Of a DNA stretch of 64,000 nucleotides, positions 18,152 to 53,033 are shown piece after piece. The notes below the pieces were generated by a model that searched no databases, was not told the origin of the DNA, and saw only the letters and a list, made by a program, of their open reading frames with translations. The stretch comes from Leucoraja erinacea. Taxonomy: Eukaryota. Each line of letters starts with the position of its first letter. Position 1 is the stretch's first letter. The position numbers were made by a program, and so were the translations under genes. The DNA lies in NCBI RefSeq assembly GCF_028641065.1, contig NC_073385.1, forward strand, positions 23,374,001 through 23,438,000, in the 5' to 3' direction.

Positions 18152-18463
<312 letters not shown>

Positions 18464-23649: not shown

Positions 23650-23703
23650 CAGCTCTTTGAAAATGTCTTCTCCTCCATTCTGTGGTTGGCTCATCCTTTT
23701 CAT
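23650..23703 (-). CDS. LRRC9: LRRC9 coding exon 1 (MKRMSQPQNGGEDIFKEL); whole exon 23650-23749 including 5'UTR
   Basis: Acceptor TTTAACTCTTCAG at 23750, in-frame upstream TGA, ATG at 23703, donor CTG|GTAAGA in phase 0. Resembles the recalled human N-terminus (..NQEEIIKEL) and joins in phase to the next exon. Confidence 0.85.
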
Positions 23704-28997: not shown

Positions 28998-30849
28998 TAG
29001 ATAGTAATTCCCCAGTTTGAACTGGCTTCTGAATGCCCAGCCGTCAATGGTAGTTAATGGTAATTATTCATTTAAAAGTTGAAGCAATCTATGCTTCAAA
29101 GACCAGAAATGTAGTAGGTGACTGAAAGACCCACAATGCTTTTGCAGGATGACTCCAAGCAGTAATCGGAGATAGATCAGCCATTCATAAGATCATGATT
29201 CTTCTTCTACCTCTGCACCAATTTTCTGCTCCGATCACATTTCTCTTGATTACCCAAAATAGCTAAAAATAAAATTTTAAGTCAGTGACTGAGCCATAAG
29301 GTCATAAGTGATCATAAGGTCATAAGGAATAGGAGCAGAATTAGGCCAGTCCGCCCATCAAGTCTACTCCGCTATTCAATCATGGCTGATCTATCTCTCC
29401 CTCCTAACCTCATTCTCCTGCCTTCTCCCCATAACCCCTGACATCTGTACTTATCAAGAGCCTCCAAATCCCTTTAGAAAATTCCATCGATTAAAATCCT
29501 CTGCATGAATAATTTTTTTAAATCTCTGAATTTAATGGTCATCTCCTTATTTTGATAGTGATTCCTGATTCTAAACATCACAACTGAGCTCAATATTTTC
29601 TCTGCATCTATCTGCCAGGCCTCCTTAGAATGTTGCACACTTCTCAGAGATCAGTATAGTCCTGATCAGTTTAAAATGATTGTCCAAGTTATCAATCTGG
29701 ACAATTATGCCACAAGGGGCAGGTGGTATGACACAGTACAAGTGAATTGAACATTTTGCAAGAAAATGACCAGAGTTTTGAACACCAGGGTTGGATAGAA
29801 CCTCAGCACACAATGGAGATTGGAATTCCACATGAGGCACAACATTCCTTCCACCATTAAGATTTGATTCTCCCAAGTGAGCTGCCATATGAGATCCCTG
29901 CAAGAAAGCCCATGCATGCAAAGAATTAATGGACAACTGAAAATTACAGAAGCTGCAATTATGGAACCATTGTTATCAAAAGTGGCTGTGATATTTGAGG
30001 AGTGGATAGGGCATTTTTCATTATAGTGGAGAGGTGTCTTTAGATTTGGGTTCCATGCTTGACTTGGTATTAATGTGCTGCCATGATATTGGCCAAGGGA
30101 CTGCCTGGGAGACTTTACCATGGTTTGGAAAGTGATTAGCAGGTGTAGATTGTCAAGTCTGCCTCCATACCAGTGATGTTCGCTCAGGAATTAGATACAG
30201 CACTTTGGCCACATTCAGACAGGAACTTTCAGCTCTCAAGTTTTAAAATTTTCCACGATAGCAGAGAATGGAGCCAAAATAGATGCAAATGGAGTAAATG
30301 AGGAATGTCAATTAGCATACAGTGACTTAAAGTATTCAGTGAATCAAATTAGTAATGGTCTCAGTGGAAACCAGCAGACTGCAGAATGGATGTATTTTTC
30401 TTACTGACATATTTTATGGGTAGGCATGCACATCTGTTTGCCTGCCGGACAACACAATGCACTACACCAGAAGAGCACACGATATATATATAATACGGCC
30501 CCTCAACAGAACCGCCGGCCAGAGGTGGGCATGTTCTGTCCCCTTACCGATTTTACAAGCACGGACAAAACGCGGGGAAAATATAAACATAAGGAAATAT
30601 AATAAACATAAAGGCATGAAAGTGGAACATTGTCATTAGAAGGGCATAACAAGGTATACACTGGAAACAAATAAGAAACATTAGTGAAACTTAATTTCTA
30701 TGACCACATTTCACAAGGGGCGTCCCTAACTTTAATTAACTAAAATTGGTGCAAAATATCCAATCAGGTAGAAGCCCTTTTTCAACATGACATTGGGGGA
30801 AGGGGAGATAAGGCTTTCAATAAGTCAACTGATTGCTTAATTTAAACCA

Positions 30850-31400
30850 TGGGCGGCTTAAATGTTCACGAGTGGTTCTTGGCCCACGGAAAGTGCACCC
30901 AGCTCTACAGTTTTAGAGTCAGGCCGCTATCGCGTTTGGGACACGGTACCCTCGCGTTATATTTGGCATTCGTAAACCCTCGAAACTATCTTCTCGGTAA
31001 ACAACCAACTCAAACACGTGCCGATGAAACGGGTGAGGGTGCCCGACCTGTACAAACTGAGTGCAGTTTACAGATGGGCGCCCGGTGCAGATCCAGCTCC
31101 AGTTCCACGCACCCGCCACGGTAACCCCACTTTCATGAAAAAACAAAGATTAAAGAGCATTAAAAAAATGACCTGGCCTGTCACTCGCTTCCAGGCACCC
31201 GATTTGGACGCGACTTATTGACCCGGGCTGTTATCGGTTCCCGGTTTAAAGCTCGTTTCGCCGACCTGCCATTCTAAGTCGCTGCGCGTCTCCGTTGTCC
31301 GGGAGCCATTTTGGTTTCCATGGAACAGTCAGAGGTTAAAGGTCGGCTGGGCAAGTCCTTGTTGAACACGAGAGATCAAGTACACACGGTGTGAGCATCC
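30850..31400 (-). promoter_or_regulatory. CpG-rich candidate LRRC9 promoter / non-coding exon 1 with RFX X-box and YY1 motif
   Basis: Non-repeat CpG-dense stretch upstream of the first coding exon, which has an acceptor, so an upstream exon must exist. X-box-like GTTTCCATGGAAC at 31314-31326 and GCCATTTT at 31305-31312. The exon boundaries were not determined. Confidence 0.55.
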
Positions 31401-38656: not shown

Positions 38657-39589
38657 TTGACAAGTCTGAACAGAAGGACTGACAAGTCTGTGGGATCTTG
38701 AAGTGAGTTGAAATAGCATGCAACCTGGAGGCCAGTTCGGCTACGCCTTCTAGTTTTTCTGTTCAACAAGGATCTTGATTCTCTAGCTGAGAGGGATTGG
38801 TGGATCCTAATGGGGAGAATGGTTTCCTGCCAATCCTATTTCCAGAACTGGAAAATTATGCATCCTTTCTTTTATACTTTAGACCTTTTGATAAATTATT
38901 CTGATTGTTACTGATCAATGACCAGTCAAGTAATAGAATGGGAAAAGCAATTTTCCAATATTGCTGGCACACTCTTGAAGGTTTCATTGTCATTATTTTT
39001 TAAATATTTTAATAGAAACTGACCAGTCGATATTTTGCCAGCGGATGAGGAATACAATTTAAGTAAATTGTCTCTTTTCAATTCGTTACAACTATATTTA
39101 TTAATATGCATGAAAACTTAAAATATCCGATAGGAAGCGAATGGTAATCTCGTGTCTTGAACTTTCCACCAAGATATGTGGTGAAAGAGAAAAAAAAACT
39201 CCAACACAGACAAAAGAAAACTACGAAGGGCGTATCGCATATTCCGGTCAAAATTCCATCAGTTTGAATGGGTGGGGCATGAAATGCTACATGTTGTCTG
39301 TTCTAAAACCTGGCTACTATGTATCCCCAAGAAAGAAAATTAAGCAAAACAATAATCATCGCAGCTTCGGTTAGGTAACTGGATTGTTAAATAATTAATA
39401 CACAAGCAATTTCTTGCAGCCAACCGCACGGGTTAACAAATCCATCGCGATTCAAGAATCTTAAATGTGTTGAATCACCTTTAAAGTTTTATTTACAAAA
39501 AAAAAAATCAGAATATGAGTATTTAAATTCTTGTTATAATGAGAATGATTCCCAGCATCCACCTCAATCTTTTAGATCATCCTCCCACC

Positions 39590-39734
39590 GCTGACGTCAG
39601 GGTAGAAACCTTGAACCAAACAAGCCATTTTCACATGCGTACAAGCTCCGGGCTGAGGAGGCGGGGATTAGGAGTTGCACAAAGAGACCAAGTTCTTTAA
39701 AAAGACGCACCTCATCACAATCCACCCTTCCATC
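39590..39734 (+). promoter_or_regulatory. RTN1 proximal promoter: CRE, GC box, TATA-like element
   Basis: TGACGTCA at 39592-39599, GAGGCGGGG at 39658-39666, TTTAAAAA at 39696-39703, in a CpG-rich context just before the ATG. Confidence 0.55.
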
Positions 39735-39957
39735 ATGGCGAGCAACCCTTTCGTCCAGCCGTTTGAAAAGGGACAGTGGAGCGAAGGAGAGGAGCTTGAG
39801 CAAGAGGACTGTCGCGTTGACAGCGGTCCGCAGGCGAGGGCGGTAGTTACTGGCGGGGATGCAGCTGCTGCAACCGAAAGCTGGCGAGCCGAGGTGAAGC
39901 AGCCGCTGGTGCCAGACTCCAGGGGACAGCCTGTTACCAAGGCAACTGCATCCGCAG
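39735..39957 (+). CDS. RTN1: Reticulon-1 long isoform, first coding exon (MASNPFVQPFEKGQW...QPVTKATASA)
   Basis: Strong Kozak ATCATGG and donor CAG|GTAAAG in phase 1. The end PVTKATASAG resembles recalled human RTN1 exon 1 end SPVAMETASTG. RTN1 is head-to-head with LRRC9 in human. Confidence 0.75.
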
Positions 39958-42900
39958 GTAAAGTGGGGTTGGGGTGGGATGGGGGAGGGTGAGATATGGC
40001 AAGGCGAACCGTCTGCAGATATGGTTTGAAATCATGTGAACAGTGCGCTAGCTTAATGCATTTCACCTAAGATTTTAAATGCGACCATTCGTCTTTTAAA
40101 TACAATGAAATAACTAAATAAACTTTAATAAATCCTAATTCCATCTCAAATATCGACTTCTGAAAATAATGATGCCTAAAATGTAGTATTTTAGTTATTT
40201 TACAGTCGCATTTTTGGTCCTCTGCAAAAGTTGGCATAGATTCACAGAATTCTTTGTTAAGAATGTTGGCATTTATTCCTTCAGTCAGATTTCAGAACAG
40301 ATTGAAGTAGGTTTTAAAAGTTGTTCCAATCGGAATTTGAGTTGGAGCATCTGATGTTTAGAGTATTTCTGGGAGAATATGTTCATTAAATATTAAAACT
40401 TTTTAATATAATACATACATTTTGAAAATTCAGCTGCTGATGTAACATGCTTTTAGGGGGTTACTGATATGTTGAGCACAAGACTTTAACACTAAAATTA
40501 GAATCTGAACAGTACATCGTTGACCGTAGATAAACTCAAGTAACAGATTAATTAGTGTGGGAGTCCTTTGTGCTATTATGACAGTTTGAATAATATGGAT
40601 TAATATTTTGAGTGTCAGATGAATTCCACTGATGTGATAGTGAATGCGAACTTTGAATTAATTGTTCATAAAATACTATTTCCTGGTTTTTGATTGTTGT
40701 GGCTCAATGTGGGTAAAAAAACTGAAATTGGTGCTAAATGTGTATACTTCAGCATATTGAGTCGTTCATTTTATAATTTGGTTATCTGCAGCCTATATAG
40801 TTTTTTTTAACTCCTGTGAGACTATTTGTTTGGGGGGGGAAAAATACGCCACAAATTTATTTTTCAATTTCCAGTTGGATAGTGGCTTGTTATGATGTAT
40901 CTTGGCATCATAAAGAGACAAGGTTGTGCACACAAAAATACTATTCAAGCTCAATGTTTGGTGTAAAATCTTAGCCAAACCATTAGCTGGGGATACAAAA
41001 CTATAGTTGAAAGTGATCATATTATTTCTATGTGCTGAAGACTTGGATTGAGAAGCTCATTGTTAATTAGTCAGATTTGCAGATGGCGCAAACTAGAAAG
41101 AGCAGCTAAATCAGTGGAGGCGGTTCACAAAAGAGTGGAACAATGGCAGATGAAATCTAATATAGATAAGCATAAGGGGGAGAATGGAAACTGAAAATAC
41201 TCTGTGATGTTGAATTAATTGAGAGATTGAAGCATTTGGCTTATCTGGAGTCTGCCCATGACAGTTGAACTAAATTGAATTCTGAACTTTTCGGTTAAAA
41301 AGGATTGTAAATGAAACGATATTGTAGTAAAGCTATAGTTACTCCTTTCGATTCAAATTAAAAGTGATACTTATGCCAGGGAAGAGAAAATTCTGAAAAC
41401 GAATTCCCTATTCAGCTCGGAATTTATATTTTAGGCACATTACAATTTTACTATAAAGGCAAAACTGAAGCATGATATTGAAACGAGAAGAAATATGTTA
41501 AACTAAGAACAGAAAATCACCATTTTCTTCATAAGAGAATGAGTTGTATTAAATACAGGAGATTAGAGGCAAAAATCCTGGGATATTTCTGAGTAAATGT
41601 TGTATGGCATGATGTAAGAGGCCTGTGTTGCAAGATGGAGAAAGTGATCATTTTCTTCTGTCTGCTTTGCTTTCATTTTACATAGAGCAATTCAAATAAA
41701 CTGACTGTTCCTACAGTAATAATTTAAATGGTTTTTAACTTCTCAATGAAGCAAGAAGATATTGTTGTAAAGTTAGTGGTGGATTGGTGTTTGGTCTTAA
41801 TGAGGTGACCCAAATGTTATTCAAATTATATTTTTTTGCTTCCACATCAGTTGATCATTCAGCCATTCAAGCAGGAAACAAAACATCCTTTCCTGATTGG
41901 AAGAGTGTTGCATGTTTCTATGGTAGAGGTTCTGGCATTTTCTTAATGTATGCTTAAACTCCGTGAACAATGTAGGTGCAAATCCAACTCTTTTAAAATG
42001 AGTCTTTCACACTATTTCAAGAATGCATTGATTTAACTATTTTTAGCACATGCTCTTAAATACAATATGTATTTGGGTAAATGACTTTAAATATAGGGGT
42101 TAGTAAGATTTCTGTCTTCAGATGTTGTTAGTACTGCACAATACTCATGTGTTCAGTTTTTCACGAGTGGCTAGACAGAAATTAAGGGATATGTCGAAGC
42201 ATTCGTTTCTAGAATCAATGAACCTGTCTACTTAGTCATGAAGTTTTAAAGTACCCGAAGTAAGATGTATAGAGATTAGTTTGGTGTGTTCTTACTTGTA
42301 GTGTTTCCTTGCAAGTCAGTCAGTCTTTAGTGTTTTGTCAGTCTTCAGTCTTTAGTGCCTTTGTTCAGAAGCTGCAGTGCTGAAAGGAGATCAAGGAATT
42401 ACATTACCTTTTAATGTAAATGGGATCTAGTTATAATCATTTTCATGTATATGAATAATATTTGTTTTGTCTTTAGCGAGTTTTAAATTGTAGTTGTTAT
42501 TTTTACTAAGCTCGTAAGTCGTAAGCTTAAGTAGAAATTGATGTGAGAGTCACTAAGAAAGGAATGAATTTAAACAAACTGTAATAGTATGTTTTTGATA
42601 ATTAACATGGTATTATTTGTAACGAGTTTTGGTGGTGCTTCATTTTTTAATCGTGAGGACTATGTTCCACAGTCAGTAACTTAAAATCTGTACTAGCAAG
42701 TAGCTATGGAAAATAGAAGAGTTAAATAGTGAACTTACTGACCTACATGAGTGTCTGCTGCAATAAGAATAGGAATAGTCTTTCCAGATTTGTTCAAGTG
42801 TGTAAGATGGTGTTGGTTGGAATTACGGATGTTATTTTTGTAAGGAGGATGGGAAATCATGAAAATTAATTTTTTTTAAATTTAATTTATGATTAAGTAA

Positions 42901-51043: not shown

Positions 51044-53033
51044 CAGGGCCGGCCTTAAGCCGATTGGACCGATTGTTCCAAATTGGGCCCCGCGCTAGTG
51101 AAATCCAGAACTCCGCTCTAGGATCTTTGGAGTAATCTACTCTCGGCTCGGGTAGATCACCCCGGGTAGAGGGTGGGGGGGAAGAAAGGGGTAGACTGGG
51201 AGGGGGAGATCCCTCACAATCCCAGGGCAGCGTTCCCGCCCCTCCAGTCGCCATGCTTCACGCACAAAGCCCCGGCTCCACCCCTCTCTCTCCCCGGGGA
51301 GAAGCGGTGAACAATACATGGAGGGCCGGGCTGGGGGTTGGAGCAACGTTTACAAACATCGGCCTCTGCTCACACCCGTCCGCCCGGACCCCGGCATTCG
51401 CTCCCGCCGGCCCTTTCCCTCCCCCTCCCTTCTCTTCTTCCCTTTCCTCCCTCCCTTCCCCTATTCCCTCCCTCCCTTCTCTCCTTCCCTCCCTCCTTCC
51501 TCTCTTTTCCCTTCTCTCCTGCATTCTCTCCCTTCTTTCACTCCTTCCTCTTTATCTTTTCCCTCCCCCCCTCCCTCCCCTCCCTCCCTCCCTCCCTCCC
51601 TCCCTCCCTCCCCCCTCCCCCTCCCTCCCCCCCCTATTTCCCAGACACAGACACACAGGCTCTGGGTCTGGCGGCCGCTCTGTCCACACCGCATAGAGTT
51701 TTAACCCCGGCCTGGAGCCAGGAGCGAACCAGGTGAGTGGGGGCATCGGTGCCGCCTCCAGAGCCGCGGGGATGAATCTCGGGCTATAGCTCCGCTCCGA
51801 TGCCCGACCCCCGGGTCACTGACCCTCACCTCCCCCGGACCCCAGCTGGACACAGAGCATCTGGGGTGGCCCGCATTCCCGGTGAGGGTGGAGGGAAATG
51901 CTCCCTGGGCATCGCCAAGTCTCCGCTCACTCCGGGTGTTGTCGCCGCTTCACTGACACACTCTCACACACAACTTAACACACACACGGGCACACAACAT
52001 AACACACACACACGGACACACACAAGGTTTAAAGGGATATGGACCAAATGCGGATTAATGGGACTATTTAGATGGGACATCTTGATCTGCATAGACAAGT
52101 TGGGACGAAGGGCCTGTTTCCATGCTGTAAGACTGTGACACCCTGTAGAAAGGGTGCAATTACTCTGGAGAGGACCCAGGGGCGATTTATGAACATATTG
52201 GCTGGACTGGAATTTTTTTTTCACTTTGAAGAAAGATTTCATAACTGGGATTGTATTCTCTGCAGCAACAGAGGTGAGGAAAAGACTTAGTTGAGGTGAA
52301 TAATATGAGAATAGGATCCGTTTGCATAACAAAGAATGTAAGATGGAACTGCAGATGGTGGTTTAAACTGAAGATAGACACTAAAAGCTGGTGATAACTC
52401 AGCAGGACAGGCGGCATCTCTGGAGAGAAAGAATAGGTGATGTTTCGGGTCGAGACCTTCAGACTGAAGAGGTTGAAAACCAGCCATAAAACACAATGAC
52501 TGGAGATGTGTGTTATCCAACTTAGGGCAGGAATTAGAATCATGTGTTCATCTTGACGTGACACCATAATAAATANNNNNNNNNNNNNNNNNNNNNNNNN
52601 NNNNNNNNNNNNNNNNNNNNNNNNNNNNNNNNNNNNNNNNNNNNNNNNNNNNNNNNNNNNNNNNNNNNNNNNNNNNNNNNNNNNNNNNNNNNNNNNNNNN
52701 NNNNNNNNNNNNCTTTTTTTTCATTTCACAGTCACTAAAACAAGTGGTGTTGTAACTATGTACTCTTCAGAGGTAATCTACACATTTTGTTTGTTACTTG
52801 TAGGCTTACATGTATGCAATTTTATATTAAAATGGAGCTTAGATCTGTTCGGTCCATTAACTCGCAGGCACTTTTTAAGCACACATTTTGATTACTTTCC
52901 ATTCTACCACAGAGATATAAAGTCTATAATAGACTTTATTTGCATTTCTATGATTCTAAAGACCTTGGCTGGGAACCTGGGGCTCACCAAAATTGTTCCC
53001 AATTGGGCCCCGCACCTCCTAAGGCCGGCCCTG
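51044..53033. mobile_element. Non-autonomous hAT transposon spanning the assembly gap
   Basis: TIRs CAGGGCCGGCCTTA and TAAGGCCGGCCCTG; 8-bp TSD GTCCCATC at 51036-51043 and 53034-53041. Confidence 0.92.
52576..52712. other. Assembly gap (N run)
   Basis: 137 N characters. Confidence 1.

Follow-up and report, generated by a model that had tools for sequence, protein, structure and literature searches.

A candidate RFX site dual-coded at the end of RTN1 coding exon 1 in the little skate, Leucoraja erinacea

Can a transcription factor site written into codons decide which residues a protein may carry there? This question is raised by the first coding exon of RTN1 in the little skate, which contains a match to the RFX X-box 11 nt before its splice donor. 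It is accompanied by a second one, namely whether such a site would serve RTN1 or its divergent neighbour LRRC9. The RTN1 features in the window, by which we mean the whole 64-kb stretch of DNA analysed here, are:

39589..39734, plus strand: RTN1 5' leader, from transcript contig cover
39592..39599, no strand: perfect palindrome TGACGTCA, presumably a CRE, at the 5' end of the transcript contigs
39618..39641, plus strand: 24-nt element in the RTN1 leader/promoter, 23 of 24 positions shared with a bird locus
39735..39957, plus strand: coding part of RTN1 exon 1 (74 codons plus 1 nt), from transcript contigs and peptide match
39933-39946, no strand: X-box-type palindrome GTTACC-AA-GGCAAC (GTTACCAAGGCAAC), codons 67-71 (VTKAT) of RTN1 exon 1
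39947..39963, plus strand: 11-nt spacer and 5' splice donor (CAG/GTAAAG, no G at +5), synonymous positions kept in skate, teleost and bird

Transcript contigs came from four runs of four studies, which we took as RNA by guess; none is on record as RNA. Contigs of all four runs end the exon at 39957 and then join it to a 39-nt exon 48.7 kb downstream, which is flanked by an AG acceptor and a GT donor. Larger exons with RTN1 motifs lie downstream on the same strand, as does the reticulon domain, about 123 kb from the exon, and NCBI reticulon-1a of L. erinacea contains the exon peptide at 100% identity. These observations confirm the original assignment of the exon to RTN1. The contigs start at 39589, 39605, 39605 and 39667 and thus place the X-box 267-345 nt after their starts, which need not be the true start and cannot fix it. 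The 39-nt exon 2 of chondrichthyan RTN1 is skippable (locus L006:4686-4724; proteins P0122-P0133), with exon 1 spliced directly to the reticulon domain in the predicted isoforms. Intron 1 carries a 137-nt stretch of N at 52576-52712 of the window.

In the frame of the ATG at 39735, GTTACCAAGGCAAC translates as VTKAT, and it ends 11 nt 5' of the GT at 39958, so that the X-box match which the original prediction had placed before the donor of a coding exon is confirmed in the spliced, translated exon 1 of little skate RTN1, the kind of location occupied by duons and exonic enhancers. The 14-mer is an imperfect palindrome within the 13-15 bp of an RFX X-box and fits its consensus, the patterns used here being either generic forms or those of the original prediction. 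On both strands of the window, GTTACCAAGGCAAC is the sole match to the predicted consensus GTNRCC(N0-3)RGYAAC. Under an order-2 Markov model this consensus is expected 0.23 times on the plus and 0.26 times on the minus strand per 64 kb, so a single match in the window is unremarkable on its own. A tighter palindrome likewise has GTTACCAAGGCAAC as its only match in 184 kb (the window plus 120 kb downstream), and a tight X-box pattern is expected 0.02 times per 64 kb in the same model. The chance of one consensus match within the 223-nt exon is about 0.002. Per window, the X-box match is near chance; its conservation is not.

To retrieve orthologous exon DNA, we back-translated the peptide without fixing the third codon positions and searched metagenome contigs for the resulting pattern. 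The pattern required a compatible peptide, and the comparison therefore tests synonymous positions only. Two of the 46 loci found were true RTN1 exon 1 orthologues, called by their upstream peptides (95% and 100% identity): a teleost locus (L053) carrying GTTGCTATGGAAAC and a bird locus (L061) carrying GTTGCCATGGCGAC, each 11 nt before a CAG/GTAAA donor. Retention of the motif at the DNA level, as originally proposed, was thus found at the same place in both orthologous DNAs, a small sample that together with the skate makes three sequences. Given each exon's own codon use, the joint chance of motif-fitting third bases in teleost and bird is about 0.003, and the X-box block is the sole coding similarity in exon 1 that blastn detects among skate, teleost and bird. 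The other 44 metagenome loci were not RTN1, and six weak tblastn matches among GC-rich loci (E 1e-4 to 8e-4) were taken as chance. The same scan gave no RTN1 orthologue among 3 loci from genome contigs or 32 loci from viral contigs. In two AT-rich, non-RTN1 loci (L047:269-299 and L052:601-631), a near-perfect X-box sits within almost the same sequence, likely a conserved animal regulatory element.

We then followed the five residues through RTN1 proteins. A set of 348 proteins yielded 230 non-redundant orthologues bearing exon 1, from chimaera, sharks, rays, ray-finned fish, lungfish, amphibians, reptiles, birds and mammals. Left out were 76 proteins that either had no exon 1 or were shorter than 480 aa, a further 40 as near-duplicates at 98.5%, and P0018 (coelacanth) and P0176, both with unrelated predicted N-termini; coelacanth and cyclostomes had no usable exon 1. 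The X-box codons spell 19 different five-residue words in these orthologues. According to the original prediction, three of the five residues would differ between skate and human with the DNA motif kept. This stands for skate VTKAT against the VAMET of the mammals and teleosts compared here.

Parsimony assigned 1, 26, 8, 10 and 3 changes to these codons in order, against a median of 23 for the exon 1 columns upstream of them; gene-tree error may inflate such counts. A loose X-box, drawn from generic consensus models and picked after the peptides were known, fits 45 of the 48 changes where 32.6 were expected from the gene background (P 5e-7). The tight X-box fits 34 (14.9 expected), and the consensus form of the original prediction 31 (15.8 expected). 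The residue changes follow the degeneracy of the X-box. The strict half-site RGYAAC of the prediction, fully matched in skate, has no room for GAA, which is codon 4 in most bony vertebrates, and accounts for just 2 of the 10 changes at that codon. Codon 2 changes at a normal rate, and 16 of its 20 changes from Ala lead to Thr (background 24%), a share of 80% that was reached in none of 47 background columns; Ala and Thr represent the two standard left half-sites. Codon 4 alternates between Glu, Ala, Gly and Thr and never shows Asp or Gln. None of its five changes from Glu leads to Asp or Gln, and none of 46 background Glu columns is free of these residues.

The tight X-box can be encoded here in 225 of the 230 orthologues, and the block ranked 1 of 15,116 in a sliding motif test over columns, frames, strands and spacers along the protein; the runner-up peptide has no X-box in the skate DNA. 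All three changes at codon 5 (Xenopus, Rhinophrynus and Pelodytes) break the last base of the X-box. The four proteins concerned (P0027, P0032, P0033 and P0064), with Ile or Met at codon 5, are natural motif-breaking variants. Synonymous constraint and motif-shaped amino-acid change coincide in these codons, a combination expected of a duon.

The same data speak to two explanations at the protein level. PV-x-x-x-TAS might be a conserved protein motif, with the X-box match as a side effect of codon choice. The flanking residues (Pro and Ala-Ser-Thr) are indeed conserved as well, and exchanges among Ala, Thr, Ser and Val are chemically mild. Such a motif would have to tolerate Met/Lys and Glu/Ala/Gly swaps, yet Glu to Asp or Gln is never seen, and synonymous positions are kept too, which makes this explanation very unlikely. 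That translation may also start at the Met within the box, given a Kozak context, is extremely improbable: four database isoforms (P0022, P0034, P0084 and P0100) have it as their first residue, but Lys stands in its place in 15 of the 16 chondrichthyan proteins, which keep the rest of the block.

The box is kept, but conservation at the DNA level extends to the donor; the element thus reaches beyond the X-box, which leaves the flank unexplained. The two codons 3' of the box keep the skate third bases in teleost and bird, with a chance of about 0.0002, a stronger signal than that of the box, and residues 6-8 change as rarely as X-box residues (8, 4 and 5 changes). The donor has no G at +5 in skate, teleost or bird. 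The first 10 intron bases are common to skate and teleost (within window 39947-39966; L053), and G-runs follow in the skate intron. It is likely that the 11-nt flank carries a further, splice-related constraint.

This could mean that the whole block acts in splicing at the RNA level, aiding a donor without G at +5, and that the X-box match is a part or by-product of such an element. Conservation is unbroken up to CAG/GTAAA in all three DNAs, third bases 3' of the box are conserved and 229 of 230 proteins have no indel, all of which such an element would explain; strong splice-related selection at exon ends is described in the accessible portion of PMC6169883. What it does not predict are the mirror-symmetric exchanges at codons 2 and 4 and the match to a validated RFX site, nor do skate, teleost and bird have a common hairpin. 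We consider a splicing element unlikely as an account of the whole block, while splicing constraint on the flank can coexist with an RFX site in the box. An RNA hairpin at the donor was rejected, as only the bird 14-mer forms a fold and the 45-mers of the three species adopt different ones. Likewise, a composite C/EBP-ATF motif was considered for the flank and dropped because of 2 mismatched positions in skate and teleost.

The original prediction went on to suggest that the site might regulate LRRC9 and help to explain why the two genes stay linked. The divergent gene on the minus strand is LRRC9, a name carried by 5 of the 10 top clusters, with the following features:

30800..31400, minus strand: single-copy CpG island, the likely LRRC9 promoter
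31314-31326 (imperfect) and 31294-31306 (loose match): X-box-like sites in the CpG island
23650..23703, minus strand: likely first LRRC9 coding exon, of 18 codons, its GT donor agreeing in phase with the exon that follows
18200..18415, minus strand: LRRC9 coding exon

Transcript contigs cover the likely promoter in none of the four runs, which is uninformative on its promoter status. A YY1-like core lies beside an X-box-like site there, at about 31305-31312. In favour of an exonic enhancer acting on this ciliary gene, LRRC9 is an RFX target in mouse ependyma and in frog, and it stands head-to-head with RTN1, its likely promoter being 8.6 kb from the box in skate; lrrc9 and rtn1a also lie in a common region in salmon (excerpt of bioRxiv 2024.03.30.587279). 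However, LRRC9 has a start-proximal RFX peak of its own in each system. In mouse ependyma, Lrrc9 peaks are listed at +494/+499 and Lrrc9 is down in a knockout (tables of PMC7498320, in part); mouse testis has a peak at the Lrrc9 promoter (excerpt of PMC4498915); and in Xenopus, where RFX2 targets LRRC9 directly, the peak summit lies 9 bp from where the gene starts (PMC3889689). The skate CpG island has its own X-box-like sites, and a compatible peptide is retained in both teleost duplicates, rtn1a and rtn1b. Control from the RTN1 exon is unneeded because LRRC9 has its own site. The proposal of LRRC9 control, and with it the explanation of linkage, is therefore unsupported, and we regard it as quite unlikely.

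This leads back to RTN1 itself. Binding and expression evidence for RTN1 is indirect, and the knockout data are mixed. Validated X-boxes typically lie within -500..+500 of the start, according to section 9 of PMC5838959, and the skate box is compatible with this range given the contig starts. For mouse ependymal cells, the part of Table S8 of PMC7498320 available lists an RFX1 peak at +768 and an RFX3 peak at +714 from an Rtn1 start, presumably that of the long isoform, and no RFX2 peak near these positions among its rows. The peaks come without coordinates that would place them and fall on the box only if the leader measures about 490-550 nt, the box centre being about 200-256 nt from the ATG in mammals. 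The same rows give further RFX peaks for Rtn1, among them coinciding RFX1, RFX2 and RFX3 peaks at +143.6 kb, within the gene. These are numbered 5, 63 and 95 in that part of the table and, if the numbers are ranks, would be among the strongest ependymal RFX sites. In skate RTN1 we found no equally tight counterpart of the mouse +143.6 kb site.

Rtn1 is absent from the rows listed of the differential-expression table for the ependymal knockout (PMC7498320). In Rfx2-/- testis at P30, it is down with a logFC of -2.43 (Table S1 of PMC4498915, in part), a drop that could be explained by the +143.6 kb peaks or by loss of spermatids. The accessible part of that study has no Rtn1 peak in -500..+50, a window unable to contain the exon-1 box. 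Both X. laevis rtn1 copies are up 3.5-4.8-fold with Multicilin (excerpt of PMC5245798), and rtn1 is not on the frog list of direct RFX2 targets (PMC3889689). Neither RTN1 nor LRRC9 occurs in any of 5 supplement files of PMC5838959, and PMC8346558 contains no RFX ChIP-seq.

The RTN1 leader offers a possible partner. The palindrome TGACGTCA, which we take to be a CRE, is present upstream in the teleost locus too and was not seen in the 449 nt of the bird locus. The 24-nt leader element shared with the bird has what we assume to be a YY1-like core. RFX3-CREB co-binding in neurons is described in the available text of PMC11888390, and their cooperation in that of PMC12236590; the perfect CRE at 39592-39599 and its presence in teleost suggest such cooperation at RTN1.

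Taken as a whole, the data favour a candidate RFX site dual-coded in RTN1 coding DNA and promoter-proximal to RTN1's own start, to which we assign a probability of about 0.65. The 14 bases would be a putative RFX site kept by DNA-level selection across the whole jawed-vertebrate span, and the site would likely tune transcription from RTN1's own first promoter, some 270-350 nt 5' of it. We infer that the palindrome lies in open chromatin near the promoter and is bound by an RFX dimer (RFX1/2/3 type), which acts together with the CRE beside the RTN1 start, more probably in activation than in repression, and in neurons or ciliated cells. The DNA motif, not the protein, would set the permitted residues, because the N-terminal peptide presumably tolerates change. 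A bolder version, which we find rather doubtful, is that over more than 400 million years the RFX site has dictated RTN1 residues, leaving the peptide as an imprint of the motif. In this version the X-box, at its constant distance of 11 nt from a non-consensus donor, would form a composite element with the CRE, by which RFX and CREB would couple transcription to first-exon splicing of the long neuronal isoform. If so, VAMET/VAMAT-type peptides could be used to recognize further coding X-boxes of great age in protein sequences alone.

Whether transcription factor sites constrain protein evolution is reportedly under dispute for duons. The question is not known to have had clean single-site cases, and the RTN1 box offers a named factor and a long time span, with substitutions whose pattern tells constraint on the DNA apart from constraint on the protein. 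We found no published report of a coding X-box in RTN1, most subscription journals lying outside the search, and it is unmentioned in the accessible parts of PMC9605692, PMC4236578 and PMC12236590. We consider the coding X-box likely to be real and functional. If so, the RFX network, linked to autism by way of RFX3 (PMC11888390, excerpt), gains a neuronal ER-shaping gene, and expression may be affected by synonymous or mild missense changes where RTN1 exon 1 ends.

Among known systems, the RTN1 box resembles the validated RFX X-boxes of DCDC2 and DYX1C1 in being a 14-bp palindrome, probably also in lying within about 500 nt of a start. A DCDC2 X-box probe bound RFX in gel shifts, and its mutation lowered promoter activity (excerpt of PMC5024701). 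The teleost RTN1 14-mer GTTGCTATGGAAAC is letter-identical to the core of this probe. MAP1A, MYC and COL1A2 are listed as direct targets in Additional file 3 of PMC5838959. Unlike validated promoter X-boxes, the RTN1 box is a sequence-based candidate embedded in the translated part of exon 1, close to its 3' end. It shares with duons, exonic enhancers and synonymous constraint elements (PMC4745165) a second constraint on coding DNA, at the level of transcription factors, and differs from duons in being a single named motif traced from chondrichthyans to mammals, with amino-acid exchanges that follow its degeneracy. What defines membership of the duon class is binding and activity. DYNC1I1 exons act on DLX5/6, whereas the RTN1 box would likely act on its host gene. 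Exonic splice enhancers at exon ends (excerpt of PMC6169883) are likewise donor-adjacent and under synonymous constraint; the RTN1 core differs from them as a DNA palindrome with symmetric variation, and their class may apply to the 11-nt flank. The RTN1 box would thus be an ordinary start-proximal X-box in its working and a duon or exonic element by its anatomy.
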